Part shown: positions 22,805-62,915 of the stretch, piece by piece
How the letters are laid out: each line of letters begins with the position of its first letter
Numbering within the stretch: the stretch's first letter is position 1
Virus record (IMG/VR): IMGVR_UViG_3300007512_001547
Location: 73,584-137,583 of that record
Source of the DNA: a virus
Length of the DNA: 64,000 bases
Strand: one strand, 5' to 3'
Made by a program: the position numbers and the translations under genes
The notes under the pieces: generated by a model
Database searches by the model: none
What the model was told of the DNA's origin: nothing
What the model saw: only the letters and a program-made list of their open reading frames with translations

Positions 22805-22815
22805 TAAAATAAAAT

Positions 22816-36379: not shown

Positions 36380-36695
36380 TAGTTGGGTACAATTAACAAA
36401 AGATTTTGTTAAGGAATGGCCCGAGATTCTTGAAGGATTACACTTCAAGAATATGCCCGTCAAATATCTACTTTACTGCAATATTAATCTTAAAAATCAT
36501 ATAACGATACATTATGATATTAAAAAAGAATTAAAAATTAAAAGTCAAGATTCTATAGCACGTTTTCTTAAAAAAACAATTGAAGCAAATTACTTTAAAA
36601 TTAAAAATGTAGATTTGAAATTTGATATTCCTGCACTAAAACGTGATATGGAATCACGAACAAATACAATATTAGCAAAAACTTTTAAGAAATAA
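36351..36695 (+). CDS. Hypothetical protein
   Basis: 114 aa, overlaps both neighbours. Confidence 0.7.
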   Translation: MPKKLPPKNSSWVQLTKDFVKEWPEILEGLHFKNMPVKYLLYCNINLKNHITIHYDIKKELKIKSQDSIARFLKKTIEANYFKIKNVDLKFDIPALKRDMESRTNTILAKTFKK

Positions 36696-38649: not shown

Positions 38650-39269
38650 CCATAGGTGCACATCCAGACGATGTTGAACTAGGTTGCTCAGGTACATTAT
38701 TAAAGTATCAAGCAGAAGGTTCTCACATTGACATTGTTATTTGTAGAGATGATAACGCACCAAAGCCAAGTACTTGGAGAGACAGAGAAAAGATGCAGAC
38801 AGAATACAAAAAGTCTGAAGAACTATTTGGAATTAAATTTAATATACTTGAAAATCCTACCGATAACGATGGAAGGCCAGTTCTAGAATGGAATAGTAAG
38901 TTTGTTAAGAAAATGGACGACATTGTTTATAATGACAACTATGATCTTATAATAACACACAGTCCAGGAGACCATCATCAGGATCATGTGAATACTTTTC
39001 ACATTGTTAATTCTTCTTTACGTAGATGGAAAGGAGAGTTTTGGTTGATGGAGGGCGGACCATACAGTAATAAAAATCAACAATTTAACCCAAATGTGTT
39101 TATAGACATATCTGATTACATAGATAAAAAAATCGAGTTAGTTAGTTGTTATGACAGTTATTTCTCTGATACATTATTACACAATATAAAAGGACTTGCG
39201 GCATACAGAGGACAGATGACTGACTCTAAATATGCTGAAGCTTTCGAATGCAAATGGAGAACACTATGA
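38628..39269 (+). CDS. PIG-L/LmbE family deacetylase
   Basis: GAHPDDVELG, THSPGDHHQDH; start ATG 38628 after SD AGGAG. Confidence 0.92.
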   Translation: MSFKKILAIGAHPDDVELGCSGTLLKYQAEGSHIDIVICRDDNAPKPSTWRDREKMQTEYKKSEELFGIKFNILENPTDNDGRPVLEWNSKFVKKMDDIVYNDNYDLIITHSPGDHHQDHVNTFHIVNSSLRRWKGEFWLMEGGPYSNKNQQFNPNVFIDISDYIDKKIELVSCYDSYFSDTLLHNIKGLAAYRGQMTDSKYAEAFECKWRTL

Positions 39270-40267
39270 GAATACTAATATTAGGGGGCTATGGATTTAT
39301 AGGTAGCCATATTTGTCAACAATTAAAATCAGAAGGACACACAATAGGAGTTGTAGATTGTTATCATCAATATTACACGTTTCCAGATTGGGAATACTAT
39401 CCTGTGCTTAATCAAAGAAAAGAAATTACAAAAACAGATAAAGAATACATAGGACAAATAGAAAACTTTCAATTTATGGAACAAACATTTGAAGATTTTA
39501 AGCCAGACAGAATTATTCATGTTGCTACTTTTCCAAATGCAAAAATGGTTAAAAGAAATGTGTTAGATGCAACTAATAATATGATTACTGCTACTGCATA
39601 CATATTAGATCTATGTGTCAAACATAAGGTACAAAAGATAGTTTATGCTTCAAGCAGTATGGTATATGGAGAGTTTAATAATCAAATACCAGACGAAGAA
39701 GTTATACCAGAACCAAATACATTGTACGGCTCATACAAAAAACAAGGTGAAACTATGTGCAAGATATGGAACAGAGAGTATGGCTTACCTTATATTATTA
39801 TGAGACCATCAGCACTTTATGGCACACGTGATACTATATGCAGAGTCATCAGCCAAATGTTAAAGAGTGTATTAACGACCGGTGATATGACTGTGCAGGG
39901 ACCTGATAATAAATTAGACTTCTCAAATGTACTGGATGTTGCCAAATACTTTTCATTAGCTACTACAAACGAAGTACTCAACGAAACATTTAATTGTACT
40001 CGTGGTAATGGTAGAAAAATTATAGACGCGGCAGAGATAATAAAATCAAAAATAGGTACTGGAAATATTATTACTAAACCACATGATTCATTCTATCCAA
40101 ACAGAGATACACTAAACAGTGATAAAGCAAAAACTATGTTTAATTTTAATCCAACAATAGATATAGAAGAAGGTATTCCAAAATATATTAATTGGTTTTT
40201 AGAACAACCTTTTTATTTTAATAATTTAAATATTAATCCAAAGTTTGCTCTGGGTACAAAGACTTAA
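39266..40267 (+). CDS. NAD-dependent epimerase/dehydratase (extended SDR)
   Basis: GGYGFIGSH, ASSSMVYG, YGSYK, RPSALYG. Confidence 0.92.
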   Translation: MRILILGGYGFIGSHICQQLKSEGHTIGVVDCYHQYYTFPDWEYYPVLNQRKEITKTDKEYIGQIENFQFMEQTFEDFKPDRIIHVATFPNAKMVKRNVLDATNNMITATAYILDLCVKHKVQKIVYASSSMVYGEFNNQIPDEEVIPEPNTLYGSYKKQGETMCKIWNREYGLPYIIMRPSALYGTRDTICRVISQMLKSVLTTGDMTVQGPDNKLDFSNVLDVAKYFSLATTNEVLNETFNCTRGNGRKIIDAAEIIKSKIGTGNIITKPHDSFYPNRDTLNSDKAKTMFNFNPTIDIEEGIPKYINWFLEQPFYFNNLNINPKFALGTKT

Positions 40268-41549
40268 ACTGCTCTTTAATCCATTCATAATCATAAGAAT
40301 ACATTAATTTATTGTAATCATTTTTGTAGTTGTTGTAATGCTTCTGACCATCAACTGCACCTTGATATATCCATTTAGCATTCTCACCATTACCCAACGT
40401 ACTCCATTTTTTAAGTCTGTATTTAGATTCCACTGTTGGTTTCATTTGTAATAATTTTATAACTTCCCTAAATGATGACCTATAAGCTAACAATGGTGTT
40501 TCGTTACAGTTACTAATTGCAGACAATATAGGTACTGAATGATGTGCTTGTGACAATGTAAAATCTAAACCTGGCTTTGTTGTTTTCATTACTAGATCTT
40601 TATTGTAAAGTATAACGCCTCCCCAACCATATGTTAGATCTATCACAGAATTATAACAATCAAATATGTAATGACAAGGGTTCCTTAACCTCTCTGGTTG
40701 AAAATCGAATTTAAAACTATCTACTATTTCGCTCTTTGGGAACACAGCAAAGAAATATTCTGTTTTACTCATCTGTGCCGCGGCCATGTAAGCAAGTGTC
40801 TGTCCTTGTACACCTTTGCTCCATTTAGCTCTAGGAAATTTTTCTTTTAATTTATTATATCGTTTTTCAGCACTAGGTTCGTCATACGATATAAAAACTA
40901 TGTCCATTGGATTTATATTATAGTCTAAGTCATAATGTACACTTCTTTCTACATCATAAAATTGTTTTAAATTATCTTGCTTTGGTACCAACATAATATC
41001 TTTTGTGTTACCCCAAGAATACAGTTTAACGTCTTCCCAGAAGCTAGGGTAAAAATTTGGCACTTTGTCAGGATCCAATTCTTTATTATACAGCCATGTA
41101 TAGTATTCTTCACTGTTATTGTATGCGGTAATTGGATCACTTAATTTAAATGCAATTTTTGGTATTATGTTTTGAAAAAGATTAGCATGAGCATGATAAT
41201 TAATGTCTTGAAAATCTCGCAAATATTGTATGTTGTACATCTGTTCTTTAAATTCTTTTGTAGGTATCAACATAATATTACCTTCTTTATTTGTTCCACC
41301 GTTAGGGTGCGTGTTGTACCATACGTGTATTTGATTTTTTTCGTGTTGTTCTGGAATGTAATCTATATCTATAGTTTTCATATTAATGAAACTAGAAAAA
41401 AACCAGAAGTACTCTGTCTTAATCTCCCCTACTACACTCTTAAGTATTTCAAAATAACTCTTAACAAAAGGTACTACCCTAGTGTTAGCAAAAGGACTTG
41501 GAAAAAATCCTGTATCTTTAAATCTGACCTGTACACTATCAAACGCCAT
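40233..41549 (-). CDS. Glycosyltransferase-like (GT-A) protein with an N-terminal extension; paralog of 51242-52141
   Basis: DIVFISYDEP.A, GVQG...AY.AAA..S.TEYFF, YGWGGVILY, YRSSFRE; DxD replaced by FPKSE; start 41549 after GGAG. Confidence 0.7.
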   Translation of the reverse strand: MAFDSVQVRFKDTGFFPSPFANTRVVPFVKSYFEILKSVVGEIKTEYFWFFSSFINMKTIDIDYIPEQHEKNQIHVWYNTHPNGGTNKEGNIMLIPTKEFKEQMYNIQYLRDFQDINYHAHANLFQNIIPKIAFKLSDPITAYNNSEEYYTWLYNKELDPDKVPNFYPSFWEDVKLYSWGNTKDIMLVPKQDNLKQFYDVERSVHYDLDYNINPMDIVFISYDEPSAEKRYNKLKEKFPRAKWSKGVQGQTLAYMAAAQMSKTEYFFAVFPKSEIVDSFKFDFQPERLRNPCHYIFDCYNSVIDLTYGWGGVILYNKDLVMKTTKPGLDFTLSQAHHSVPILSAISNCNETPLLAYRSSFREVIKLLQMKPTVESKYRLKKWSTLGNGENAKWIYQGAVDGQKHYNNYKNDYNKLMYSYDYEWIKEQFKSLYPEQTLD

Positions 41550-41573
41550 AAAAGTCTCCACCATTAAGTTTTA

Positions 41574-43037
41574 TCATAGTACTTTTACTCCATATTTGGC
41601 TGTCCAGTCTTTACCATCTTTGGTGTCATTTACCATTGGCATACCCTTAATGTTCAAACTGGTGTTTAACAATATTGGACAACCTGTTTTCTTTTTCCAT
41701 GCTTTAAGTAACTCATAAAACCCTTCGTTATCGCTTTTAGCGACGGTTTGCACCCTAGATGTATTATCATAGTGTATTATGGCAGGACAGTCTTTACCAT
41801 GCGTGTACGTTGCTGTATATTGCATATAAGGGGTGTTTAAAACACCTTTAGGTAGCTTAAAATACTCGTTTACATCCTCTTCTAAAATGGCAGGAGCAAA
41901 CGGTCTAAACTTTTGTCTTCTTTTAATTTGATTTACCATATCCTTAATTTCCAATCCTCTTGGGTCAGCTAAAAGAGATCTATTACCAAGAGCTCTTGGT
42001 CCAAACTCTGCTCTACCATTTGCAACTCCTACCATTTTATTTTCTGTTAATTCTTTTATAATTTTATCTACTGGATATTCTCCTTCTATGTTATATCCTA
42101 AAAATGGACTCTTCCAATCTAAGTGTCTTTGTTCCGATGCCGCGATACATCCTAACGAACTTCCTGCATCTCCTGGATTAGGTATAATCCAAATGTTATC
42201 AAACAATCCCATATTTGCTAATGCAGTGTTTGCCGCACAATTAAGAGCAACTCCGCCTGCATAAACTAAATTTCTGCTACCATACTTAGATGCTCTATGC
42301 CATAAATCTGCAAGACATTCTTCAAGAACTGATTGTATACTTGCGGCTATATCCATAACATCTGCTTCTGGATGCCAATCACTTAACCCTCTATGTAAAT
42401 TCTTTTTTAATTTAAAAGGTGATTGTATCACAAAGTCTTCATAGATATCATCTTTATATCTTGGTTTTCCATAAGCCGCCATTCCCATTAAAATATATTC
42501 TTCTTCTGCAGGTTTTAATCCACAACGTTGTGTAAATGCAGAATATAATATGCCCAAACTATGTGGATACTTTATAGTTTCTTTTCGTTCTATCCAAACT
42601 TTGTTAGCAGTAGATATTGATACTGTATCCCATTCACCTATTGCATCCACTGTTAAAATAGTTGCTTCTCGAAATGGTGAAGTAAAATATCCTGCCGCGG
42701 CATGACTATCATGATGTTTTACATATTCATCTATTTTAATTTTAAAATTATCTAAATGCCATTGTGGCATTTCTGTATAACTTAAAGCATCACTGTATTG
42801 TCCTGCATAAAATTGTCGTGTTTTCTTTAATAAAGGTTTTTCGTAATAAACAACTTTGTCAAAAGGACCATATGTCATTGCTTCATTTACTATTCGCCAA
42901 TTTAAATAAAAATCATTTTTAACTTTTGAATAACGTTCTGCATGAGCGGCCCATAGCACTTCGCCTATACCACTGCTGTAATCAACAACTGCCATTGCGG
43001 CATCGTGATTCATACAGTTTATACCTAATATTCTCAT
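41574..43037 (-). CDS. Carbamoyltransferase (NodU/CmcH/TobZ family)
   Basis: HDAAMA, HHDSHAAAGYF, DAIGE, SLGILYS, GGVALNC, GRAEFGPRALGNRSLLADPR, RPFAP, SRVQTV, LLNTSLN. Confidence 0.96.
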   Translation of the reverse strand: MRILGINCMNHDAAMAVVDYSSGIGEVLWAAHAERYSKVKNDFYLNWRIVNEAMTYGPFDKVVYYEKPLLKKTRQFYAGQYSDALSYTEMPQWHLDNFKIKIDEYVKHHDSHAAAGYFTSPFREATILTVDAIGEWDTVSISTANKVWIERKETIKYPHSLGILYSAFTQRCGLKPAEEEYILMGMAAYGKPRYKDDIYEDFVIQSPFKLKKNLHRGLSDWHPEADVMDIAASIQSVLEECLADLWHRASKYGSRNLVYAGGVALNCAANTALANMGLFDNIWIIPNPGDAGSSLGCIAASEQRHLDWKSPFLGYNIEGEYPVDKIIKELTENKMVGVANGRAEFGPRALGNRSLLADPRGLEIKDMVNQIKRRQKFRPFAPAILEEDVNEYFKLPKGVLNTPYMQYTATYTHGKDCPAIIHYDNTSRVQTVAKSDNEGFYELLKAWKKKTGCPILLNTSLNIKGMPMVNDTKDGKDWTAKYGVKVL

Positions 43038-43588
43038 CTTTTTAATTTAAACCATTTTTTTGCTTGTTTTAAATAATTTTTCCACCATTTATTTTCAATT
43101 GTATATTCAAAATTTTGTGAGGTTTTGTTTACTTGTAATTCTTTAGCACCATTCCTTAAATGAAATTCTCGTGCCATATCTGTTAATGGTGATAATGTAA
43201 CTAATCGATTTAAATGATTTGATTTTTTAATCATTTTAAAAACTTCTTGTATTATTCTTTTTCCACCACCTTTTTTCTTTGACCAAACTGTATAAGCAAT
43301 AGCAATATTGCCTTGTATTCCTGCTCTATGAGTTGCCTGTATAAAAGCATCTTTACTCATTAAATCTAATTCTTCTATCGTCTTTGGTATTTCGTGTGTA
43401 AAGGCAAAGCACATAACCGCAACAATATCTTTGCCAAGTTTTAAACCATATATTTTTCTACCCCAATCTTTTCTAAACTTATTATCCAATTCAGGCCTCA
43501 CAGGATCTTCTTTGAAATGACAATATTTCATTTCAACTAACTCCACTTTTTTAAGCCAATCAAATGTTAACTTTTTAATTTTTTTCAT
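43034..43588 (-). CDS. Hypothetical protein, possible GNAT-like fold
   Basis: AYTVWS..KGGG..II and VTLSP...A..FH..NGA, reminiscent of an acyl-CoA-binding loop. Confidence 0.6.
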   Translation of the reverse strand: MKKIKKLTFDWLKKVELVEMKYCHFKEDPVRPELDNKFRKDWGRKIYGLKLGKDIVAVMCFAFTHEIPKTIEELDLMSKDAFIQATHRAGIQGNIAIAYTVWSKKKGGGKRIIQEVFKMIKKSNHLNRLVTLSPLTDMAREFHLRNGAKELQVNKTSQNFEYTIENKWWKNYLKQAKKWFKLKR

Positions 43589-43872
43589 TTGTTTACTTTT
43601 ATTTCTTCACTCTCTCCATAATACGGAGATGCAAGAGAGTGTGGTTTTATTATAAATCCTCTTATATTATACATTTTAATTTGTGCTAATAAATTTCCTG
43701 CTTCTGCTAAAGCAAACCAAAATGCATTTTTTTCATAGAGATAAATCCAACTAAACTTCCTAGGATATTTCTTACCGTTAATATAAACTTTCCAACCATT
43801 AACAATATTATAATTTCCCCATTTATGTTTAATATTAAACCTTCGACTAAATTTTTTACATTTAATTTCCAT
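43585..43872 (-). CDS. Hypothetical protein
   Basis: 95 aa, aromatic/basic, ATGA coupled downstream. Confidence 0.55.
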   Translation of the reverse strand: MEIKCKKFSRRFNIKHKWGNYNIVNGWKVYINGKKYPRKFSWIYLYEKNAFWFALAEAGNLLAQIKMYNIRGFIIKPHSLASPYYGESEEIKVNK

Positions 43873-43879
43873 TTAAATC

Positions 43880-43984
43880 TTATTTGTATATAAACGGGTC
43901 TTTTTTCTTTAGTTCTTTTAATCTTTTACGATAAGCAAGTTCTTGCTTAATCTTATTGATTATTTTTTTAATCCATCCGAACAT
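43880..43984 (-). CDS. 34-aa basic microprotein (not in ORF track)
   Basis: MFGWIKKIINKIKQELAYRKRLKEL...KDPFIYK; SD GGAGG 5 nt upstream; fills the gap in the operon. Confidence 0.7.
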   Translation of the reverse strand: MFGWIKKIINKIKQELAYRKRLKELKKKDPFIYK

Positions 43985-44789
43985 TTTTTCCTCCTATTAT
44001 TTCATTAAACTTAGGTTGCATTAATTTTACAGCATCTCTGTGTGCTTTGTCTAGCGGGTGTGTTGTACCACGTTCATATTCATTCAATAATGCCCATTGA
44101 TTAAATCCCATACAACGATCACCAAAGAAAAACCATCTGGTTAAATCTATTTCTTTATGTAATGCTAACATAAATGGATCTTGATCTTTGTGGTTATCAA
44201 AGTCTCTGTAAAACAAACTATTATCAGCAAGTGTAAACATATATGGAATTTTCTTTTTTTCTAAAATATTCTGTAACCAAATAATAGATTTCCAGCTCAA
44301 ATATGTTTCATGATATTCATTAGCGGCGTGTTTATAAATTGCTTCAGCAAATGGTTTAACTCCTGTATTAATTAATAACTCTTCTCTTCTTTTCCATTGT
44401 TCTTGTTGTGCTTCGGATCCTACTAACGCAGTATGTCGCTCTTCACTTGCTATTTTAGTGTCCCAGGGAGATATTGTTGCCCAACGAGTTTTTTCTAAAT
44501 TTCTATGTCGTGGCATCGCCCAATCATAACGAGATAAAAAACTCCACATTACAACAACACAACCAATATCTGTTGTATTTGCTACTGCATTAAAAACTCT
44601 TCTTGCAATTCCTGGATTTCCTGTACCAGGTCTTGCTGTACAAATATAATTGTCTGGTTGACAATAATTTTCTTCTTGACTTAAAACATATGCCCAACTT
44701 TGCTTAGATGGTGTTTTACCTTCATTATCATCAGACAATTCGTGTCCAAATGTAAAACTACAACCTCCTGCTATAAATTTTTTATTCAT
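43968..44789 (-). CDS. SGNH/GDSL hydrolase-like protein (possible sugar O-acyl esterase or transferase)
   Basis: Block I GGCSFTFG, block II GTGN, C-terminal THP...H. Confidence 0.8.
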   Translation of the reverse strand: MNKKFIAGGCSFTFGHELSDDNEGKTPSKQSWAYVLSQEENYCQPDNYICTARPGTGNPGIARRVFNAVANTTDIGCVVVMWSFLSRYDWAMPRHRNLEKTRWATISPWDTKIASEERHTALVGSEAQQEQWKRREELLINTGVKPFAEAIYKHAANEYHETYLSWKSIIWLQNILEKKKIPYMFTLADNSLFYRDFDNHKDQDPFMLALHKEIDLTRWFFFGDRCMGFNQWALLNEYERGTTHPLDKAHRDAVKLMQPKFNEIIGGKNVRMD

Positions 44790-45948
44790 ATATTTGTAAT
44801 ACCTTATTTAAAAGTGGAAAAACATCTCCAAAATCTTCTTTTCTATACTTGTCTGTTTGTAATATCCTTGCTTTTCTTTGCTCTCTAATTTCTTCTGAAT
44901 CTCTATGTGCTGAATTCATAAATCTTAATGTGGGTTGAAAATCTGTAAGCATTGAGTATCTACTATTAACAATATTTTTAACCTGTTTAGGTAATGTTTG
45001 TATGTTAAAATAATCTGGATCAAAACAGGTATTAACATAAAAGAATTTAGGTTGATATTGTGCTACCCATAATGAAATTTTTGCTAAACTAAAAATATTA
45101 AAAATACTAATTGTTGTACAAATTTGAAACTCCATATTATGAGTTTGATATGTTTTAAACTCTACAAGATTATGATTAACTTCTCTCCAGTTAGCAGGGT
45201 GTCTTTGATATTGAAACTGCTCTCCTACATCATCAATACTAAATGCTATTTCAACTCTTTTAAAATATCTCCACAGGTCAAATATTTCTCTAGGCGGCAA
45301 TTGTGTTCCATTTGTGTTGTAGTGTATATCTATATTTTTTGCATAACCTTTTTCAACACAATGCATTAATATTTTAAAATGATCTCGTATCATAAAAGGT
45401 TCACCACCTGTAAACTCAAAATATTCTGCATCTGCTAAACATTCTTGTATGTCATCAAAAAATGTAGGATGTTTTTTTGGCCAACCACCTTCTTTTAGAT
45501 TTTTTCTTGCGACTGGATTTTCTCCATAATCTAATTCTTCCTGTGCCCACTTGCTGGAACTCCAACTGCCACATATTCTACATTTTAAATTACATACGTT
45601 GCCCAACTTAAAATCTATAAACTTTAGTGTTGGCTCGCTATTAGGGGTCCAGTCTTTTAAACTGTTACGCATTTTATAAATTGAATTCATACGTTTTGAT
45701 GTTTTTCCAACACTTTCTTCTTGCCAACAACTTTCACAACTTAAAGGACGTTCTCCATTTTTAAATTTTTGTCTTAATTTTTTCATATATTCAGAACTTT
45801 GTATTGTTTTTAAATCAGTTTCATATACTTTAACATTGGGTATATTTCCTTTATATAAACAACAAGGCGAAGCACCTCCATTTACATCTACTTCTAAATG
45901 TGTCCACGGTAATGGACATATATTTGATTTTATATACTTTTCCACCAT
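44782..45948 (-). CDS. N-terminal twitch-domain radical SAM protein (copy 6)
   Basis: ICPLPW...PCC...CESCW..E..SKR; GNVCNLKCRIC; TGGEP. Confidence 0.93.
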   Translation of the reverse strand: MVEKYIKSNICPLPWTHLEVDVNGGASPCCLYKGNIPNVKVYETDLKTIQSSEYMKKLRQKFKNGERPLSCESCWQEESVGKTSKRMNSIYKMRNSLKDWTPNSEPTLKFIDFKLGNVCNLKCRICGSWSSSKWAQEELDYGENPVARKNLKEGGWPKKHPTFFDDIQECLADAEYFEFTGGEPFMIRDHFKILMHCVEKGYAKNIDIHYNTNGTQLPPREIFDLWRYFKRVEIAFSIDDVGEQFQYQRHPANWREVNHNLVEFKTYQTHNMEFQICTTISIFNIFSLAKISLWVAQYQPKFFYVNTCFDPDYFNIQTLPKQVKNIVNSRYSMLTDFQPTLRFMNSAHRDSEEIREQRKARILQTDKYRKEDFGDVFPLLNKVLQIYE

Positions 45949-47276
45949 TCCAATACCTCTGGTTCTTTTATTAATATTTTTGTAATATCTGTTCCACGAA
46001 TTTTATCTAAACGCTCGCATTCTTCTTTTCCTGATTTCCAACCTTTCATACAAGTTTCTTTATCATAACGTTGTTCATTAGTAGGATGATTTTTCAAATC
46101 GTCCAATCCTTCTAAAAATGCCATGTTAAACACTGTAGGTTTTTCGTTTTTAACTTTGTCTTTAACTTTGTCTACCATTTTGTGTAATAATTTTTGAGGC
46201 ATAAACAAAGGACTCATGAATACATCAGGACTAAAAGTAAATACTTTTTTACATAATAACGGTATTTTCAAATCTTTTTGTAATTCATACATATTTTCTA
46301 AGTCAAATAATCCAGGAAGTGTTACAGTAAGATCTAATTGTAATTGTCTTGGATGCCTTACGAATTTTTTTGCATATTGCATATTAGAATACCATTCGTT
46401 ATATTTTAAACCTGTTCTAATATATTCACCAATTTCGCCAGTTCCGTCTATTGATGCATTTATTTGCCAATCTTGAAATTTTGAAAGAATATCATCAAAT
46501 AAATTTAATTTAAAAAATTTAATTCTACTCATATTAGAATTATACCTAACATAAACTTGATTTGCATATCCTAATTCTACTACACGTTGCATGGCAATCC
46601 AGTGTATTTTCCACATTAACGGTTCTCCACCGCACCAATAAAACTCTCTAATAGTTTTCTCTTCAATTGCTTTTGTAAATTCTTTAACCATTGTTTGATC
46701 ATGGAACTTTTGCAATATTGCTTGTACATCTTTCCTACCCCAAATTCTATATTTTGTGTATAGTTCAGGTTTGCGATGTTTTTTATTTTCCGCCTCCCAA
46801 CTACTACTCAACATATCACCACACATTCTACAACTAAAATTACAAAGATTAGAAAATCTATAATCCCAACTAACAACTTTCATTGTTGTTACACCGGTGT
46901 CATCTGTTGACTCAAATGCTTTATCTATATCGTTTCCGTAAAATCTGTTGAAGTGCTGTCTATACACCTGTGCATTAAGCAGTTTATGATTACAAGTAGC
47001 ACATTGTGGTATTTCTTCTCCGGCCATTAATTTAAGCCTAACTGATTTCATATATTCAGAATTCCAATGCTCATCTAAACTTTTTAAATTAATTTTACCT
47101 GAACTTATATTACTCTTATAATCTTTTGGTAGTGTGTCAATATATTGTTTAAAATTATTGGAATCTTCACGACTTGCACAACACAATCGCCTTTCCATTT
47201 GAGGTGACATATAAGTATGCACCCATGGCGCCATACAGAATGTTTTATTACCTTCGTTTGGTTTAATTTTTTTCAT
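45930..47276 (-). CDS. N-terminal twitch-domain radical SAM protein (copy 7)
   Basis: Likely start MKKIKP at 47276; FCMAPW...LCC...CATC; NLCNFSCRMC; CGGEP. Confidence 0.93.
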   Translation of the reverse strand: MKKIKPNEGNKTFCMAPWVHTYMSPQMERRLCCASREDSNNFKQYIDTLPKDYKSNISSGKINLKSLDEHWNSEYMKSVRLKLMAGEEIPQCATCNHKLLNAQVYRQHFNRFYGNDIDKAFESTDDTGVTTMKVVSWDYRFSNLCNFSCRMCGDMLSSSWEAENKKHRKPELYTKYRIWGRKDVQAILQKFHDQTMVKEFTKAIEEKTIREFYWCGGEPLMWKIHWIAMQRVVELGYANQVYVRYNSNMSRIKFFKLNLFDDILSKFQDWQINASIDGTGEIGEYIRTGLKYNEWYSNMQYAKKFVRHPRQLQLDLTVTLPGLFDLENMYELQKDLKIPLLCKKVFTFSPDVFMSPLFMPQKLLHKMVDKVKDKVKNEKPTVFNMAFLEGLDDLKNHPTNEQRYDKETCMKGWKSGKEECERLDKIRGTDITKILIKEPEVLEWWKSI

Positions 47277-48555
47277 ATTTGTCAAATAATTCTTTCCATT
47301 CTGGAAACGTATCAGTAAACGTTTCGTCTCTAATTTTATCATATTTCTTTGTTTCTCTGAAAAACAATTCAAGTTTATCTGTTTTATCTCTTCTAAAAAG
47401 ATAATCCAAAGCACTTTCATATCCTTTAGTTGCACGAGTAAGATGATCTTGTGCTTTTAACCATTCTATATGTTTTTCGTATTTTTCTTTTATTTGTTGC
47501 TTAAATTCTTCTGGCAAAAGATCCATACGTTGCCATAACGGAAACTGCAATAAATTAAAATTAAAATCTTGTGGTTTAATCAATCCTTGCTCTACCCAAT
47601 TCTTATGAAAATCTACAACGTGTAATGCATTTACTAATCCTACTGTTGAACTAATATAAAAATCAACTTGTGGACAAACTACTAACATACGTTTTCTATT
47701 TGCTACAATATCTTTCCATACAGTTCCTTTACGCATTAATTCTGCTCTTGGTCCTTCTGCATCTAAACTTGCTCCTATAGATACTGAATCAAATTTATTC
47801 CATAATTCAAATATATCTGTACCTTTAAATTTGGACTTACTAAAATTTGTATTATAAATTAACCTAACATGATACATTTTACGTTTGTCTAATTCTTTTA
47901 AAATTCTTAGATGTTCTTCCATTATAATTGGTTCACCACCAGCAAAATAAAACTGTTCCACATGATCAAATTGTTCTAATAATTGATCCCATATATCATT
48001 AGAAGTCCTACCAACTTTCATAATTTTTGCATGGGGTGGTGGACTACCTGTTAATTTTTTGTGATCTTCGTACCAATTAGAACTAAACCATGTACCACAA
48101 CTTCTACAAGCCATGTTACACAAATTACTAAAACGTATATCCCAATATTTTATTACAAAGTCTGCTGAACCATCTGACTGTGTAGTATTAACCATATCAA
48201 TATTATGTCCAAAATGTTTGTTTGAACTTAAACGTAAACTAAAGAATCCAGATTTTTCTTGATCATAACACTTAAAACATTCACGTGATGGTTTGTTTGC
48301 TAACATATTCAAACGCATTTGTTTCATTTTATCACCATTCCAAACTTCAGCCATTGATTGTTTATTAAGATCACCAACTGGCAATTTGTCTAAAGCAAAA
48401 CAACAAGAATATGCTCTGCCATCTGGAAATGCGTGAAGGTGCATCCATGGCAACATACAAAAATTGTCACTTTCTATTAATAACTCCTTTTGTTTAGGAG
48501 TCATATCTTTTATTTTTAATTTCTCAGGCTCTTTTGCTCCGTACTCATATGCCAC
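47263..48555 (-). CDS. N-terminal twitch-domain radical SAM protein (copy 8)
   Basis: GTG start; FCMLPW...SCC...CFKCY..E..SLR; NLCNMACRSC; AGGEP. Confidence 0.93.
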   Translation of the reverse strand: MAYEYGAKEPEKLKIKDMTPKQKELLIESDNFCMLPWMHLHAFPDGRAYSCCFALDKLPVGDLNKQSMAEVWNGDKMKQMRLNMLANKPSRECFKCYDQEKSGFFSLRLSSNKHFGHNIDMVNTTQSDGSADFVIKYWDIRFSNLCNMACRSCGTWFSSNWYEDHKKLTGSPPPHAKIMKVGRTSNDIWDQLLEQFDHVEQFYFAGGEPIIMEEHLRILKELDKRKMYHVRLIYNTNFSKSKFKGTDIFELWNKFDSVSIGASLDAEGPRAELMRKGTVWKDIVANRKRMLVVCPQVDFYISSTVGLVNALHVVDFHKNWVEQGLIKPQDFNFNLLQFPLWQRMDLLPEEFKQQIKEKYEKHIEWLKAQDHLTRATKGYESALDYLFRRDKTDKLELFFRETKKYDKIRDETFTDTFPEWKELFDKYEKN

Positions 48556-49888
48556 GATACCATTCTCCTATTATTGGGAAAGTTTTTTCAAAATCTTTTC
48601 CTCTTCGTTTGTCATATTGACTATAAAATAACTTAAAGTCTTTTTGTAATTTTTCTCTTGCGGCCGCTCCAGCGTGTGGTGTTTTAACAACATCTAAATA
48701 ATCAATTAATCTTTGTGTATGATTAATTTCCATTTCTTCTAAATGTTGTTGATTATTTTTTAAAAATTTTTCAATATCCCCTTTAAACTTATTACGTAAA
48801 TCATCTGGCAATACCAAAGGTGATTGAAAACTTGGAAACCTTAAAATATTAAGTGTATAATTTATTGTTGGTCCGTAAATCTTACTTGCATTTTTTAACC
48901 ATACAATTTTTTCTAAAAATTCAGCCAGTGATTCTAAACACAATGCATTGATTGTACACATATTGTGAATTTCTGCTGGTACTTTATCAACCATCATGTG
49001 TAATACTTGACTATACCAATCTCCATAATTTAATCCGTCTCTAATATATTCTGCTTGTCTAAATGTTGCTTCATTACTAGTGTACAAGTGAAATCTATCA
49101 AAGTTTTTTAATTTCTTTTTAAAACGTTCTATAATATCTTGTTTTGCACCTAAATTAGAATTAATTGCAATACGCATATGAGGATTCATTTTGTGTCCTT
49201 GTGTTTCTATCCAATCTAACAGTCTCCATAAATTAGGCGACATCATAGGTTCACCGCCTGTTATTCTTAATTCATCTAAACTTTTATGCAAATCTGTTTC
49301 CCACCAAGTGTAAAATGCTTCAACATAAGGATTAGTTTCATCTTTTTTATAAGGTTCTGCTGATTCATGACTGTGAGTAAAATGATTTCTTCCGTCTGTT
49401 GTCATATCTGTGTATGGACCTTTTTGTTTAATGTCTCTTGCCCATGTTGTGCTAAATGCAGGATTGCAATAAGAACAAGCAAAATTACAAGTTCTGTCAA
49501 ATGCTATTTCTAATGTTTTTAAATTCCAATCAATTTCGTGACTCTCAGTAAATGCTTCTTCTAAATGACCACTGTCAAATATTTTTGATTTGTATACCCT
49601 ATCTGATATAGCATCTTTGCCAATGTCTTCTATTTTCCAACAATATTCACAACCTGCAGGTCTTTCACCACACTGCATTTGTTTACGTTGCTCCTTCTTT
49701 TGCCATGTATTGTGTATTGCAGATGGATTTGTTTTTATTTCTTCTAAATCTATTTTGTGTGGTAATGGGTGATGACAACTTGTAGTCATACCACTGCCTA
49801 ACCATATAGTTGCATTGAACCATTTAGCACCACAAAAACTTGCTGACTTTGTATCTAATATTTGTTTTTTATATTCTAAATCTTTCAT
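48545..49888 (-). CDS. N-terminal twitch-domain radical SAM protein (copy 9)
   Basis: FCGAKW...SCHH...CEYCW..E..SDR; TCNFACSYC; TGGEP. Confidence 0.93.
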   Translation of the reverse strand: MKDLEYKKQILDTKSASFCGAKWFNATIWLGSGMTTSCHHPLPHKIDLEEIKTNPSAIHNTWQKKEQRKQMQCGERPAGCEYCWKIEDIGKDAISDRVYKSKIFDSGHLEEAFTESHEIDWNLKTLEIAFDRTCNFACSYCNPAFSTTWARDIKQKGPYTDMTTDGRNHFTHSHESAEPYKKDETNPYVEAFYTWWETDLHKSLDELRITGGEPMMSPNLWRLLDWIETQGHKMNPHMRIAINSNLGAKQDIIERFKKKLKNFDRFHLYTSNEATFRQAEYIRDGLNYGDWYSQVLHMMVDKVPAEIHNMCTINALCLESLAEFLEKIVWLKNASKIYGPTINYTLNILRFPSFQSPLVLPDDLRNKFKGDIEKFLKNNQQHLEEMEINHTQRLIDYLDVVKTPHAGAAAREKLQKDFKLFYSQYDKRRGKDFEKTFPIIGEWYRGI

Positions 49889-51255
49889 GCGTTTTTACAC
49901 TCCTGCCAAAATTCTGACATTTCTGGGAATACTGTTTCAAAGTTTGTTAAGCGTCTACGATCATGTTCGTTAAAAAATGCGTAAAAGTTCTTTTTAGTTT
50001 GCGTACTAGTGTCTGCATTTTTACGCCAATAAGCTAAATTGCGTAACATTTTTTGAATCTCAAAGTCTTTGAATATGTGTAATCCTTTATCTTCTCCAGA
50101 ATTTTCTCTCATATATTCTATGTTGGCTTCATGTATTGCTTGATATGCCTCAGGCAATAATGTTATCTGTTGCCATGCAGGCTGTCTAAGCAATGGTATA
50201 TCAAACCATACTCGTTGATACGTTTTACTATGTCGTTTTCGTAATTCTAAAATACCTTCTAATAACTTATCCAAACTTGTAACACTAAGATTATTGTATG
50301 TGATTATAAAAGTAACTGAATTACGTACTGGTATACGATCCAAAAATTCATCTACATTATCCCACATACGATTAAATTCTAATCCATTTCTAATATATTC
50401 TGCTTGTTTACCCCATGCATCAACTGAAACAAATTGCATGAAATGTTCAACTTTCTCCTCAATACAGATTTTCTTAACCATATCAAAATATTTGTTTTTT
50501 AATTTGTTATTAGGTGGACACATATTACTGGTTACGTTTAAGTGTAAGTCTTGTTTTGGATTATTAATAACGTATTCAAATACTTTATATGTGTTATTGT
50601 CCATCATAGGTTCACCACCTGTCATACGAAAATGTTTTAAATTTTTATATAATGTAGGCCACCACTTCCAAAAAGCAGTAACATAAGGATTATCTTCTTT
50701 ATGTGGTATTGGACGTTTTCTTCCTTGAAAGTGTTCAGGTGCATTGTGGGGAGGAGATGTTGGATATTGGCCATATACAGCAATCTCCTTCCCCCACGTT
50801 GTCGAGAATTGTGGTGAGCAATAAGAACACTTAAAATTACAAGCATTATTAAAGTTTACTTCCACATATCTCGGTGTCCAACGTTCGTCCATTGGATTTT
50901 GTTTAATTGCTGTAAAGTCTTGCATGGCCCATGGTTCACCAGAACGATAATGTCTATCTGACATTTCGCCTGTGTCTTCCATTTTCCAACAATATGAACA
51001 ACCCTCAGGCCGTTCTCCTTTAAGCATTTGTTGTCTTTGATTTAATTTTTCTGCTGTATTATGTAGTGCCGCAGGATTATCTTCTAATTTTGTTGCATCT
51101 ATTTCATGTAAAGGTGGATGATAGCAACTGTTTGTTAATCCAGTAGGCAAGTGTAATGAAACTTGATTCCATTTTGCCAAACACATAGTTGGTGAAACAT
51201 TATCAAGTAAACTTTTAGCCAACTCTGCATCTGCTTTATAATTACTTGTACTCAC
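49885..51255 (-). CDS. N-terminal twitch-domain radical SAM protein (copy 10)
   Basis: GTG start; MCLAKW...SCYH...CSYCW..E..SDR; ACNFKCSYC; TGGEP. Confidence 0.93.
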   Translation of the reverse strand: MSTSNYKADAELAKSLLDNVSPTMCLAKWNQVSLHLPTGLTNSCYHPPLHEIDATKLEDNPAALHNTAEKLNQRQQMLKGERPEGCSYCWKMEDTGEMSDRHYRSGEPWAMQDFTAIKQNPMDERWTPRYVEVNFNNACNFKCSYCSPQFSTTWGKEIAVYGQYPTSPPHNAPEHFQGRKRPIPHKEDNPYVTAFWKWWPTLYKNLKHFRMTGGEPMMDNNTYKVFEYVINNPKQDLHLNVTSNMCPPNNKLKNKYFDMVKKICIEEKVEHFMQFVSVDAWGKQAEYIRNGLEFNRMWDNVDEFLDRIPVRNSVTFIITYNNLSVTSLDKLLEGILELRKRHSKTYQRVWFDIPLLRQPAWQQITLLPEAYQAIHEANIEYMRENSGEDKGLHIFKDFEIQKMLRNLAYWRKNADTSTQTKKNFYAFFNEHDRRRLTNFETVFPEMSEFWQECKNA

Positions 51256-52141
51256 GGTCTTGTACTCCTGTGTTGAATGGGCGTGGCATTACAAATTTAA
51301 AAAAATTGCTTTGGTCTTCATCAAAATTTTCACAAGGTATATCTATTCTTTGCTTAAGACTATTGCCATATACTTCTAAATCTTCATCTACTTTATCTTC
51401 AACTATACCATTTGCAAATAAATCTGCCATTTTATCTAACTCTCTAATTTGTATAAATTCGGTTGAATCCACAGTAGTTGAATAACAACCCATTCTTGCT
51501 CCTAACATAGCATACTTGCCATACTCAACATCTGCACCTACAGTCATCCACGTGGTTAGTATTCTAAGATTGCTACCTTGTATAACACGCATAAAATTTT
51601 GTGGTGGTATATGTTTACCTTGATTTAAACTCATCTTAACACCTTCTCTATAACCTGCTATCCAAGCCTGTTGTGGTGTTGCATTAATAACAGTAGTTGA
51701 ATAACAATTATGTAAATTTTCATGAGGTACTGTCCAACAAAAATCTATTTCTGCTTTTTCATCTTTTGCGTTTTCGTGTGTTTTCATTTGCAAACAAGTT
51801 TCACGTGGCCATCCTACCAAACCACCATTGCCATATACTAAATTATTAACATTATTTCTTGCTCGCCAACGATGTACGGCTTTTGGATCTGTTTTAGACC
51901 AATCTAAAGTTTGTAATAAAAAACTCTCATCTATAATATTGTCTCCATCAACTGAAATAAAAAAATCTGTTTCTGCTTTTTCTGCCGCGGCTTTGTGTGC
52001 TGAATCAAATCCTTTAACTCCGTCAACACGCTTTGCCCACGGCACTTTGCTTAACAAGTCTGCCCAATTCTCTTCTTTGTTTGGTTCAGCATAACTTATA
52101 AAAACAAAGTCTAAATCCGAGACTCTTACTCTATCCGCCAT
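51242..52141 (-). CDS. GT-A fold glycosyltransferase-like protein
   Basis: DFVFISYAEP, GVKGFDSAHKAAA, SVDGDN (DxD), YGNGGL, AGYREG. Confidence 0.75.
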   Translation of the reverse strand: MADRVRVSDLDFVFISYAEPNKEENWADLLSKVPWAKRVDGVKGFDSAHKAAAEKAETDFFISVDGDNIIDESFLLQTLDWSKTDPKAVHRWRARNNVNNLVYGNGGLVGWPRETCLQMKTHENAKDEKAEIDFCWTVPHENLHNCYSTTVINATPQQAWIAGYREGVKMSLNQGKHIPPQNFMRVIQGSNLRILTTWMTVGADVEYGKYAMLGARMGCYSTTVDSTEFIQIRELDKMADLFANGIVEDKVDEDLEVYGNSLKQRIDIPCENFDEDQSNFFKFVMPRPFNTGVQDREYK

Positions 52142-52422
52142 ACATACCCTTCCTTACCAATATTTTTAACCCAAAAAGGATTTTTTTTATAAAATTTAAC
52201 TCCGTTATCTGCCTTATGCATTAATGGTTGTCGCTGTTCTACAGGTATACGTTTTTTTCTTACAACTTCTCCTTTTTTCCACGTATAATTTTCCTCACCT
52301 GCTCTTGTTATTTCTAAATAACGTTCTAATGTTACAACTATACTTTGACCTTCGATAGTAACCACGTGAGGTTGTCTTTCTTTTGGCTTAAAATTTTCTA
52401 ATGCTTCAAAAAATCCTGGCAT
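52126..52422 (-). CDS. Hypothetical protein
   Basis: 98 aa, overlaps both neighbours. Confidence 0.65.
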   Translation of the reverse strand: MPGFFEALENFKPKERQPHVVTIEGQSIVVTLERYLEITRAGEENYTWKKGEVVRKKRIPVEQRQPLMHKADNGVKFYKKNPFWVKNIGKEGYVWRIE

Positions 52423-53206
52423 TTAATTCCTCTGGTAATGATTTGTTATAATAATGAAATATTCTTGATTGCTTATATCCACCTACATAAACTTTTTCAT
52501 CTATTTGCATTGGATATAGATATTGATCGTTAATAAATGCTTGGGTTAATCCATTTATTGCATTTTTATTATGCATAAAATTAAACCAATCATATTTTAT
52601 ACGTAATTCATTTAATGGATCTTGTATTTTAAGTGCAAGAGCATATACAACATCTGTTGATGATTGCTCATCATGACAATTTATTAAAAATTTATTCCGT
52701 ACAACAGGCCAATTTAACATAATGCCTTTACATAAATTATAAAATGTTTGTGCTTGTCTACTTTTTCTAAAATAAGTTAATCCGTTATATACATCTGGCA
52801 AATTATTTGTAACAAATAATTTTCTATAAGGTGTATGTTCAATAATTGTGTCTCTATAACATCTTACATGATAAGAAAAAACCATATTATGTTGATGCAA
52901 ATAATTCCACCACCAATCTGTGTTACTTGTAAACAACATATCAGCTTCTAATTTAATTGTGTGCTTAAAAGGTGTTAAATTAAAAACTTGCCATTCGTTG
53001 TTTAACTTCCATTCCTGATCTTTGCTATAATCTTGTTCTAATACAACTACATGATCAAATTCTTCATGATCAACTAGTTTATCAGTTATAATACATACTT
53101 TATTTTGCCTATTATGCTTTTTAATTGACTTTGCAAGACGTTTACTTAACTCTATATAATCAGTTGTGGAGTTATTCAATGCAAACCAAACATATCCTCT
53201 ATCCAT
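52406..53206 (-). CDS. GT-A fold (GT8-like) nucleotide-diphospho-sugar transferase
   Basis: G.V.FA.N....Y...A..LA.SI pattern, TPFKHTIKLEADML (ExD), YNGLTYFRKS, DVVYALA. Confidence 0.7.
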   Translation of the reverse strand: MDRGYVWFALNNSTTDYIELSKRLAKSIKKHNRQNKVCIITDKLVDHEEFDHVVVLEQDYSKDQEWKLNNEWQVFNLTPFKHTIKLEADMLFTSNTDWWWNYLHQHNMVFSYHVRCYRDTIIEHTPYRKLFVTNNLPDVYNGLTYFRKSRQAQTFYNLCKGIMLNWPVVRNKFLINCHDEQSSTDVVYALALKIQDPLNELRIKYDWFNFMHNKNAINGLTQAFINDQYLYPMQIDEKVYVGGYKQSRIFHYYNKSLPEELNARIF

Positions 53207-53963
53207 TTACAAACTCCTTATCCATAACATGAACATCTTGTTCTTCAACCATATTAACTTTATTATTGTACTTGAATGTTATTGTTTTATCCGACATATC
53301 TAATACATCTACTTCATGTGATATCATAGCCATTGGTGTTGGAATAAAATTTTTATGAGAATTAAATCCATTTAACTGATGTAATGCTATTGCAAAAGCA
53401 AAATCATTTCTATAATTTTTATATTTTATACGATACAAATTTCTATAATGAGCATAGTATTGTTGTATGTGTTGAATTAAATTAAAAACTTGTTCTGCAA
53501 ATACTGATTTACGAAAAATAGTAACCGTTGCCCAAACTATTGGTACTGTTGATTCATTTTTACCTTCAATCATATTTTCACCTGTTAAATCATATACGTT
53601 ATTGTGTAATAAAAAATCATACTTTGTATTTGCATACGTTAATAGATTATTAGTAAAAACAAAGTAATCACAATCCATAAGAATTGTAGTATCATAAGGT
53701 GAGTGTTTGTATGCTAAACTTCTTTCTAAATTATGCCAAGCAATACTTTGACCTCTATAACTTCTTCTATTGCCTACTTTATTATCAACAATCTTGTAAT
53801 TAATCATACCTAAAGGTTTAAACTTTTTGTAAGTTTCAAAATTAGTAACAATAGTAATTTCTAATTTTAGATATTTTCGTATTTGTGCTACACAACGTTC
53901 AGCTAACAAGTGGTAGTTAACTTCAGGCGTATTGAAACAATACATTAATACACCTGTTGTCAT
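53199..53963 (-). CDS. GT-A fold (GT8-like) transferase, paralog of the preceding gene
   Basis: SPYDTTILMDCDYF (DxD), WATVTIFRKS, RNDFAFAIA. Confidence 0.72.
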   Translation of the reverse strand: MTTGVLMYCFNTPEVNYHLLAERCVAQIRKYLKLEITIVTNFETYKKFKPLGMINYKIVDNKVGNRRSYRGQSIAWHNLERSLAYKHSPYDTTILMDCDYFVFTNNLLTYANTKYDFLLHNNVYDLTGENMIEGKNESTVPIVWATVTIFRKSVFAEQVFNLIQHIQQYYAHYRNLYRIKYKNYRNDFAFAIALHQLNGFNSHKNFIPTPMAMISHEVDVLDMSDKTITFKYNNKVNMVEEQDVHVMDKEFVNG

Positions 53964-54280
53964 TTTAACCTTTTATTCTTTAGATCCTCGTGTAGTTGAT
54001 GGTATGAATTTAATGTTTCTTGATTTCTTTCAATCAATATTCTCAAAAATTCATCTGGATCTATTATGTGACACGGATTATCATTAGTATCTAACATATA
54101 AAACTCCTTAGAGTGTGCTTTAAATGTTTGAACTACATTTATGGTATCAGCGTCTGCACGAAATAATCTACCATTGTATGCTATAATCTGTCTGGATTTT
54201 AACTTTTCCAGAGCATTCTTTTTAATTTGGTTTAGATCGTGTGCTAGATCAGAATAGTTTTTGAGAGTGCCAATATCCAT
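53960..54280 (-). CDS. Hypothetical protein, weakly DUF4376/tail-fibre-assembly-like; first gene of the glyco operon
   Basis: 106 aa, YNG..F.AD...LD.NDNP pattern; directly behind a consensus promoter. Confidence 0.6.
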   Translation of the reverse strand: MDIGTLKNYSDLAHDLNQIKKNALEKLKSRQIIAYNGRLFRADADTINVVQTFKAHSKEFYMLDTNDNPCHIIDPDEFLRILIERNQETLNSYHQLHEDLKNKRLK

Positions 54281-54286
54281 AACTGT

Positions 54287-54315
54287 ATTATACAGTTAAT
54301 TATGGACTGTGTCAA
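54287..54315 (-). promoter_or_regulatory. Perfect-consensus sigma70 promoter, leaderless, overlapped by a 19-bp palindrome
   Basis: Minus strand TTGACA-N17-TATAAT, ATG 6 nt downstream; TAACTGTAT-T-ATACAGTTA at 54280-54298. Confidence 0.8.
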
Positions 54316-54334
54316 TGTGGTAAAATGTTTTTTA

Positions 54335-55303: not shown

Positions 55304-55307
55304 ATTG

Positions 55308-56957: not shown

Positions 56958-56968
56958 ATATATATATA

Positions 56969-57148: not shown

Positions 57149-57174
57149 TTAAATGTTCTCCTTATGGTTATTTA

Positions 57175-57642: not shown

Positions 57643-57656
57643 TATAAACTATTTTA

Positions 57657-59252: not shown

Positions 59253-59256
59253 GGGA

Positions 59257-60648: not shown

Positions 60649-60679
60649 ATACCATTATTTATTTGTTCTGCACTCCTTA

Positions 60680-62176: not shown

Positions 62177-62179
62177 TTA

Positions 62180-62905: not shown

Positions 62906-62915
62906 CCTAGTGTAT

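Follow-up and report, generated by a model that had tools for sequence, protein, structure and literature searches.

The window analysed here is a 64-kb stretch of viral DNA (IMG/VR record IMGVR_UViG_3300007512_001547, bases 73584–137583 of a 137.6-kb contig with a CheckV completeness of 29%), and our subject is an operon within it that follows tail-fibre genes and combines glycosyltransferase (GT)-like proteins with five radical SAM enzymes and a carbamoyltransferase. The family-B DNA polymerase encoded at 5150–7813 is 45–51% identical to those of Sinorhizobium phage Phosso and Agrobacterium phage Atu_ph07, which have genomes of 470–490 kb. Because of this similarity the contig is, on sequence grounds, a piece of a T4-related, Atu_ph07/Phosso-like jumbo phage. 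The operon runs on the minus strand from 54280 to 40233 and comprises 16 co-directional open reading frames (ORFs), given below in gene order with homologues from the cultured Ralstonia jumbo phage RsoM2USA.

53960–54280, minus: s106, first operon gene, a conserved small protein with no family or PDB match; homologue RsoM2USA ORF354
53199–53963, minus: GTx254, GT8-like GT-A glycosyltransferase with a DCD motif, paralogue of GTx266; homologue RsoM2USA ORF353
52406–53206, minus: GTx266, GT8/GT6-like retaining-type GT-A fold in which EAD replaces DxD (model and structure match)
52126–52422, minus: s98, small protein kept in 62 related loci
51242–52141, minus: GTy299, GT-A fold over residues 3–176 with invariant D65-G-D67 and a helical C-terminal domain
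49885–51255, minus: rS1, N-terminal-twitch (N-twitch) radical SAM protein, NF033640 334 bits; the sole copy found in every relative
48545–49888, minus: rS2, N-twitch radical SAM protein, NF033640 295 bits; 53% identity to RsoM2USA ORF202
47263–48555, minus: rS3, N-twitch radical SAM protein, NF033640 403 bits; Pfam SPASM at residues 33–97
45930–47276, minus: rS4, N-twitch radical SAM protein, NF033640 314 bits; revised start
44782–45948, minus: rS5, N-twitch radical SAM protein, NF033640 359 bits
43968–44789, minus: SGNH/GDSL-like protein, assigned at motif level
43880–43984, minus: micro-ORF for a 34-aa basic peptide ending ...YRKRLKELKKKDPFIYK, with an invariant C-terminal half
43585–43872, minus: s95, 95-aa ORF without homologues in relatives
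43034–43588, minus: p184, possible GNAT-fold acyltransferase (weak)
41574–43037, minus: carbamoyltransferase of the NodU/CmcH type with an HHxxH motif
40233–41564, minus: GTy443, whose C-terminal half is a GTy299 paralogue minus the DxD and whose N-terminal 215 aa have no family match

Thirteen of the 15 junctions between these genes overlap (in gene order −4, −8, −17, −16, −14, −4, −11, −14, −19, −8, −17, +7, −4, −4 and +9 nt), which bears out the coupled 16-gene operon proposed in an initial annotation of the sequence. For rS4 the start was reset to the ATG at 47276, giving a 14-nt overlap; the longest ORF, starting at 47435, would overlap its neighbour by 173 nt. The operon proteins have no transmembrane-like segment (maximum Kyte–Doolittle 19-residue mean below 1.5), and Pfam searches and hydropathy reveal no initiating phosphoglycosyltransferase, flippase, polymerase or membrane protein across the 14 kb. 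In profile searches of the operon proteins against Pfam, PHROGs and NCBIfam, s106, s98, s95 and the N-terminal half of GTy443 returned nothing, and the s106 alignment has no PDB match by sequence or profile search. Because s95 is without a homologue in any relative, it may be lineage-specific or spurious.

All five radical SAM proteins match NCBIfam model NF033640 over its full length, at 294–403 bits against a cut-off of 170, confirming their assignment as twitch enzymes. Their alignment has invariant C146, C150 and C153 (the CxxxCxxC motif), G206-G-E-P and, towards the N terminus, C33, C93 and C96. A Cys-rich SPASM-like domain precedes the CxxxCxxC core, and in three of the five Pfam places SPASM N-terminal to Radical_SAM. 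The contig holds 11 NF033640 copies over the cut-off, 10 of them in the window. Five lie on the plus strand (10837–12009, 14283–15437, 17597–18733, 21626–22804 and 30608–31765), interleaved with a weakly GT-B-like gene (15434–16609) and with GalE-like epimerase, peroxiredoxin, FolE and GMP-reductase/IMPDH-like genes. Literature searches found no paper combining the phrase 'N-terminal twitch' with 'radical SAM', and a search joining phage, twitch and GT gave irrelevant papers. As there is neither a paper on the family nor a solved relative that we could find, NF033640 supplies a name rather than a reaction.

The four GT-like proteins have no match in Pfam, PHROGs or NCBIfam at E 0.01, and we therefore modelled two of them, GTy299 and GTx266. 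The AlphaFold model of GTy299 (predicted local distance difference test (pLDDT) 95.8) has a GT-A fold over residues 3–176. Its best VIA match is B4GALNT1 (Z 10.5, root-mean-square deviation 2.9 Å, 142 aligned residues), followed by WrtF, ThuS/SunS, SpsA, TarS, the viral proteins A197 and A64R (PBCV-1 A64R at Z 8.2–8.3) and the nucleotidyltransferases IspD and MobA, which have the same fold; the VIA rows under B4GALNT1 hold GT-A enzymes and nucleotidyltransferases only. Foldseek alone is marginal (E 1e-3), Pfam PF00535 (Glycos_transf_2) scores 15.3 bits, under its cut-off, and neither GTy299 nor its alignment has a PDB match by sequence or profile. D65-G-D67 is invariant in the family alignment. 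The family is large, with more than 7,500 near relatives falling into 1,178 clusters at 50% identity. In relatives of 715–809 aa (proteins P0199, P0203, P0226 and P0247) the GTy domain follows a GT-B (MGT/MurG-like) domain as part of one fusion protein, and P0122–P0129 carry two GTy domains in tandem.

The GTx266 model (AlphaFold 2, pLDDT 91.2) resembles glycogenin (GT8) and the ABO transferases (GT6) in Foldseek (E 1e-7, probability 1.00, template-modelling score about 0.5), in agreement with its Atlas neighbours, Nucleotid_trans and Glyco_transf_8. Only the second Asp of its EAD motif is invariant; GTx254, its paralogue by alignment, has DCD. The GTx alignment also has an invariant D and H..K, and searched against the PDB it finds NleB and glycogenin only, at E 0.15–0.8, too weak to stand alone. 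In the C-terminal half of GTy443, VFPKSE occupies the site at which RsoM2USA ORF348 and the homologue in related locus L078 keep VDGD, and for this reason GTy443 is probably not a conventional transferase in this phage. The initial annotation had counted four GT-A enzymes: the fold is confirmed by models for two and by paralogy for the others, whereas none matches a family library and the fourth, GTy443, has lost its DxD. Since no curated model (Glyco_transf_8 PF01501, Glycos_transf_2 PF00535) matches, we file GTx and GTy under the GT-A fold and not as members of GT8 or GT2.

The carbamoyltransferase is secure, with both Pfam domains over cut-off (Carbam_trans_N 145 bits, Carbam_trans_C 178.8 bits), a phrog_1601 score of 316 bits and an intact HHxxH motif in which H108, H109 and H112 are invariant. 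Enzymes of this NodU/CmcH type act on sugar hydroxyls. The 34-aa micro-ORF close by is, judged by its conservation, a real gene: its C-terminal 17 residues (...YRKRLKELKKKDPFIYK) are invariant where the flanking enzymes fall to 57–70% identity, and it is better conserved than any enzyme of the operon. It tracks the carbamoyltransferase, not a radical SAM protein, and stands alongside it in every one of the 43 untruncated phage loci as well as in RsoM2USA. There, an unannotated 36-aa ORF ending ...RKQDPFIYK lies between ORF201 and ORF200 (minus strand, about 13891–14002 of locus L009), in a 108-nt stretch that GenBank lists as intergenic. Complex prediction for the peptide with the carbamoyltransferase gave an ipSAE of 0.50 (runs 0.50, 0.02 and 0.51; best control 0.01), with a partner pLDDT of at least 57 and at least 71% of contacts shared. 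In calibration, 58 of the 80 solved complexes came up to the mark, as did 2 of the 110 mismatches, and values of 0.60 or less took in only 7 of the 80 together with both mismatches; we treat this weak prediction as a lead only.

The SGNH-like protein has an invariant G9-x-S11-F-T13 (x is C or D), G55, N58 and H244-P, but no conserved Asp three positions ahead of the His. It has no match in Pfam, PHROGs or NCBIfam and its alignment none in the PDB; its paralogue group matches DUF6071, and the L078 relative matches DUF6071 and, weakly, Lipase_GDSL. The SGNH call thus stands on catalytic-type motifs and on relatives with a weak GDSL match, but at motif level only. The product of p184 is at best GNAT-like: the Pfam MCD C-terminal domain scores E 0.0011, below cut-off, a KKGGGK motif is present, and the alignment has no PDB match beyond chance-level TCP-1 rows.

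An IMG/VR scan with rS1 as the query gathered 76 related loci (labelled L024, L041, L078 and so on in the synteny comparison), and marine samples, Tara included, yield close homologues. In all loci that reach far enough the order fib549, f322, promoter, s106, GTx, GTx, (s98), GTy, rS1 is the same, from 95% down to 42% identity. In the close clade rS1 is followed by rS2–rS5, the SGNH-like gene, the micro-ORF, p184 and the carbamoyltransferase. In a distant clade (L075–L081, rS1 42% identical) rS1 stands alone, and a different cassette of 9 kb separates it from the terminal GTy-like gene. That cassette contains two DUF7796-like and two DUF6071/GDSL-like genes, and nucleotidyltransferase, RuBisCO-like, APH/MtnK-like kinase, 3-dehydroquinate (DHQ)-synthase-like and short-chain dehydrogenase/reductase (SDR) genes. 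The L078 copy (IMGVR_UViG_3300008113_005242, 11747–20408) could make a nucleoside diphosphate-cyclitol or unusual sugar, or salvage the 5'-deoxyadenosine from radical SAM turnover.

Because the core order is constant and the content after rS1 differs among relatives, the operon is, as read from its sequence, a fibre-linked core that stays fixed and an exchangeable tailoring cassette placed ahead of the last gene. In RsoM2USA the core (ORF354–348) immediately follows the fibre-like ORF355 and lies within the structural block ORF355–383 (PMC8504454). Linkage of the operon to structural genes, which the initial annotation had proposed as a check, therefore holds in deeply diverged phages. Its picture of one indivisible assembly line does not, since an rS2-type radical SAM gene, the micro-peptide and the carbamoyltransferase of RsoM2USA (ORF202–199) lie about 90 kb from the core, a split showing that two modules are joined here. 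GTy with N-twitch radical SAM genes, and the carbamoyltransferase with radical SAM genes, also recur together on unrelated contigs. The HTVC008M carbamoyltransferase lies among nucleotide-metabolism genes and is not fibre-linked.

Two groups of genes flank the operon:

54335–63998, minus: nine fibre-like and structural genes upstream of the operon, several after ATAAATA boxes
36695–40267, plus: amino-sugar genes (DegT/EryC1 aminotransferase, GFO/IDH/MocA oxidoreductase, PIG-L deacetylase, NAD epimerase/dehydratase) that converge on the operon

The upstream fibre genes share an N-terminal fibre motif and encode proteins with 20–28% Ser plus Thr, against about 10% in the operon enzymes. Upstream genes also have matches among the PHROG families for tail fibres and virion proteins, as well as to a virion protein of PA5oct, so the Ser/Thr-rich fibre genes of the initial annotation are indeed present on the same strand. 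In L024, L041, L044 and L082, homologues of the epimerase and DegT genes follow the carbamoyltransferase on the operon strand; as they lie inside the operon in relatives, the amino-sugar link is not an accident of one genome.

The operon has its own promoter, one of six with the same architecture:

54315–54287, minus: sigma-70-like near-leaderless promoter of the operon
8612–8640, plus: sigma-70-like near-leaderless promoter
12194–12221, plus: sigma-70-like near-leaderless promoter
22782–22810, plus: sigma-70-like near-leaderless promoter
23286–23314, plus: sigma-70-like near-leaderless promoter
27818–27846, plus: sigma-70-like near-leaderless promoter

The operon promoter, TTGACA-17-TATAAT, matches the sigma-70 consensus at 12 of 12 positions. 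Its −10 box ends 6 nt ahead of the s106 ATG, there is no Shine–Dalgarno sequence, and the Met-Asp start is invariant. The −35/−10 pair is kept in nearly all of about 65 related loci, in which the flanking sequence varies; promoter-like sites as a class are not in excess (95, against 95.4 in shuffles). The single consensus promoter proposed earlier is thus borne out. Strong sigma-70-like boxes with the −10 box 5–8 nt from the ATG also precede the plus-strand genes at 8649, 12229, 22816, 23321 and 27853, which sit in a replication and metabolism region and include clamp and metabolism genes. ATAAATA/TTAAATA boxes, 11–26 nt ahead of the start, are confined to genes of the fibre region. The sequence places the operon promoter in the non-late class. 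Non-late genes of the phage seem to use leaderless or near-leaderless mRNAs; the fibre genes carry late-type ATAAATA boxes. The operon is in line with the fibre genes in that it adjoins them on the same strand, but it has its own conserved, sigma-70-type and apparently leaderless promoter, whereas theirs are late boxes. No terminator lies between f322 and the operon, so read-through is possible.

Taken together, the operon very probably encodes a soluble pathway that builds and edits a glycan. We infer its reactions and its acceptor as follows. In the cytoplasm, a glycan would be assembled and then edited. The core (s106, the two GT8-like GTs, s98, the GT2-like GTy299 and rS1) would use nucleotide sugars, either the host's or tailored by the phage, to glycosylate an acceptor, and the DegT, GFO, PIG-L and epimerase genes next door would supply amino sugars. 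The cassette ahead of the terminal GT-A-like protein, consisting of four N-twitch radical SAM proteins, the SGNH-like esterase or acyl-handling enzyme, the 34-aa peptide, the possible GNAT protein and the O-carbamoyltransferase, would edit these sugars by radical C–H chemistry (epimerization, oxidation or deoxygenation, by analogy with BtrN and HygY), by acylation or deacylation and by carbamoylation. The position next to fibre genes, conserved across three deeply diverged lineages, and the variability of the cassette lead us to favour a phage-made protein of the host-recognition apparatus as the acceptor, which would give that apparatus a variable glycan coat. That the pathway acts on a phage-made protein, first of all the adjacent tail fibres, is a reading we hold tentatively and at somewhat less than even odds. 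Three GT-A enzymes with catalytic-type motifs, the O-carbamoyltransferase, the amino-sugar genes and the alternative sugar cassettes speak for the build-then-edit scheme of the initial annotation, among them the L078 cassette with its nucleotidyltransferase, kinase, DHQ-synthase-like and SDR genes, and content after rS1 varies among relatives much as it does in surface-glycan loci.

Several observations weigh against the glycan-coat reading. No member of NF033640 has a known reaction, and a sugar-editing function for the N-twitch proteins is proposed purely from their analogy to BtrN, HygY and NeoN, which are twitch enzymes. Single-copy bacterial N-twitch genes occur in contexts unrelated to sugars, next to acyl carrier protein, ketosynthase and AMP-ligase genes in Paenibacillus, and next to proline racemase and methyltransferase genes in Nitratireductor. 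Arrays of GTy and N-twitch genes are also found on long Bdellovibrionota contigs without phage fibres, and in RsoM2USA the carbamoyltransferase module lies away from the fibres. In Atu_ph07, which by its DNA polymerase is the closest cultured relative, the pair of f241 and a fibre gene is present, with no module within 14 kb. Adjacency to the fibres may be inherited, or may come from a hypervariable site that tolerates insertions, and need not mean that the functions are linked. The sigma-70-type promoter is shared with plus-strand genes and late ATAAATA boxes occur only at fibre genes, which suggests early or middle expression of the operon; co-expression with the late structural genes, expected of a virion-glycosylation system, is not what the promoter class indicates. 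No glycan has been observed on any virion of these phages, and for RsoM2USA the published proteomics covered abundant gel bands only (PMC8504454).

As a guide to substrate, the bacterial context was dropped: the Paenibacillus, Nitratireductor and Bdellovibrionia neighbourhoods are heterogeneous or uninformative, the Bdellovibrionia chromosome locus offering only further radical SAM genes and unknowns. In loci among L087–L164 (L119, L134, L136, L150, L154 and others), arrays of 3–8 N-twitch genes lie on contigs assigned to Bdellovibrionota, Gammaproteobacteria MED685 and further bins. GTy-like or carbamoyltransferase genes accompany some of the arrays, and contigs L087–L089 and L142 look like phage DNA of this clade.

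The operon could instead remodel the host envelope, its enzymes altering cytoplasmic O-chain or capsule precursors early in infection and so blocking the adsorption of competing phages or the loss of progeny on debris. The early-type sigma-70 promoter fits this explanation, as do the GT8-like and amino-sugar enzymes (DegT, WbpB-like GFO, epimerase), which are typical of lipopolysaccharide pathways, and a cassette that varies as O-antigen loci do. Known phage O-antigen modifiers such as Gtr and Oac are, however, membrane proteins, and the 14 kb examined here hold no membrane protein, initiating phosphoglycosyltransferase, flippase or polymerase. The strict post-fibre position in distant phages would, moreover, be a coincidence. 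We consider host-envelope remodelling unlikely, while recognizing that O-chain modification is the role favoured by Zaragoza-Solas et al. (2020; PMC7029224) for the fibre-linked GT8 and radical SAM cassettes of pelagimyophages.

That study described a 'host recognition cluster' of marine myophages with fibres, GT8 enzymes and radical SAM cassettes, so the view in the initial annotation that such a system was undescribed does not wholly stand. Judged on content, and setting aside the defining flanks VrlC and gp14, our locus is alike in being a variable island of tail fibres, glycosyltransferases and radical SAM cassettes in the structural region. It differs in belonging to an Atu_ph07/Phosso-like jumbo phage, whereas the account in PMC7029224 is descriptive and concerns pelagimyophages and cyanomyophages of about 140–190 kb; that account does not name the N-twitch family, the promoter, a fixed order of the core, or the module of carbamoyltransferase and peptide. 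In the literature searched we found no description of the N-twitch family as such, nor of the other three features. A paper on 'Moraphage' (PMC12619734) mentions core glycosyltransferases and not radical SAM or carbamoyltransferase genes, and we do not equate that lineage with this one.

The product could also be a small molecule, either anchored on the 34-aa peptide, whose conserved Tyr in DPFIYK would be glycosylated as in glycogenin before radical modification and carbamoylation, or free, as an aminoglycoside-like pseudo-oligosaccharide. The peptide is the most conserved element, co-occurs with the carbamoyltransferase in 43 of 43 untruncated phage loci and has the weak complex prediction (ipSAE 0.50). 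Twitch enzymes of aminoglycoside pathways act on amino sugars and cyclitols beside DegT-type aminotransferases, PIG-L/LmbE deacetylases and glycosyltransferases, with a carbamoyltransferase as well for tobramycin; BtrN, a dehydrogenase, and HygY, an epimerase, each consist of a radical SAM core with one auxiliary-cluster twitch domain. The window likewise has twitch radical SAM, DegT, PIG-L, GT and carbamoyltransferase genes, a butirosin/neomycin-like set, and L078 adds a DHQ-synthase-like cyclase. BtrN, HygY and NeoN are established twitch radical SAM enzymes that edit aminoglycoside sugars (references listed in PMC10991966). By contrast with their C-terminal twitch domain, that of the phage enzymes is N-terminal, and no sequence relation is detectable beyond the superfamily.

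Other observations make a peptide-borne or free product doubtful. The fibre-linked core occurs without the peptide in the L075–L081 clade and at the core locus of RsoM2USA. Among the operon proteins Pfam finds no peptidase or RRE-type domain of the kind associated with RiPPs (peptides made on the ribosome and modified after translation), nor is there an exporter; the 137-kb contig contains no detected sugar-phosphate cyclase, 2-deoxy-scyllo-inosose synthase or nucleotidyltransferase. The very basic peptide helix could be a mere small subunit. A bolder synthesis, which we think decidedly improbable, would make the N-twitch family a new glycan-editing class of 1–15 paralogues, each with its own radical C–H edit, acting on a glycan primed on a protein or peptide tyrosine by a glycogenin-like GT8 enzyme. 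The ...DPFIYK peptide would then be the primer or an obligate carbamoyltransferase partner, and the outcome a rapidly evolving 'glyco-code' borne by the host-recognition apparatus of jumbo phages that abound in sea and soil.

Perhaps the genes form no single pathway, and the post-fibre region is a hypervariable insertion hotspot that collects unrelated accessory enzymes. Content after rS1 does differ between clades, the RsoM2USA set is split over two loci, N-twitch genes are scattered (10 in 64 kb) and one ORF, s95, is without relatives. This is nonetheless very unlikely, given 13 of 15 overlapping junctions behind one conserved promoter, a core order fixed from 42% to 95% identity, and the recurrence on unrelated contigs of GTy with N-twitch genes and of the carbamoyltransferase with radical SAM genes. 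To our knowledge no DNA glycosylation system uses GT8-like enzymes, carbamoyltransferases or PIG-L deacetylases. Hypermodification of DNA, in which the GTs and tailoring enzymes would decorate a modified base against restriction, is accordingly most improbable: the early-type promoter, the solubility of all the proteins, the FolE and GMP-reductase-like genes elsewhere in the window and the precedent of phage DNA glycosylation by several GTs (Pyle et al. 2024, as cited in PMC12619734) are compatible with it, but a Pfam search of the 137-kb contig, which covers about 29% of the genome, gives no match to a ThyA-like hydroxymethylase, TET/JBP or TGT/DpdA (the TET model matched no control), and the fibre linkage would be left unexplained.

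If a glycan coat on the fibres is the product, its closest parallels lie in the glycan machinery of mycobacteriophages (virion glycosylation: Freeman et al. 2023, as cited in PMC12619734) and chloroviruses, in which virus-encoded soluble GT-A enzymes glycosylate structural proteins in the cytoplasm. Those systems have few glycosyltransferases and are without radical SAM arrays, a carbamoyltransferase or a conserved peptide; their virion glycan is demonstrated, whereas here it is a prediction. Sugar-editing radical SAM enzymes are uncommon and much valued in natural-product chemistry. NF033640 occurs here in arrays of 5–15, always together with glycosyltransferases, and the phages that carry these arrays are very abundant in ocean metagenomes. 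A product on tail fibres would bring a layer of glycan into host recognition by phages, a product on the host would represent a soluble-enzyme route to superinfection exclusion, and either target would bring the first assigned reaction for the N-twitch family. As RsoM2USA is cultured and carries the same modules, both chemistry and target are directly testable.

Contig pieces from Logan (runs with small word shares) fall on both the operon and the fibre genes, and one contig, of RNA-library origin, reaches across the promoter (54084–54327). Such contigs give no information on start, strand or level and may stem from carried-over DNA, so we draw no conclusion about transcripts. Among the fibre genes, 57657–59252 (minus strand) encodes a 531-aa protein whose N-terminal half is rich in glycine (weak Gly_rich_2 match) and whose C-terminal part has a Hint-like start (CFLEGT...); it may be a structural protein that processes itself. 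The 155-aa protein encoded at 57175–57642 (minus strand), a member of phrog_17252, is conserved between fibre genes in 32 related loci.

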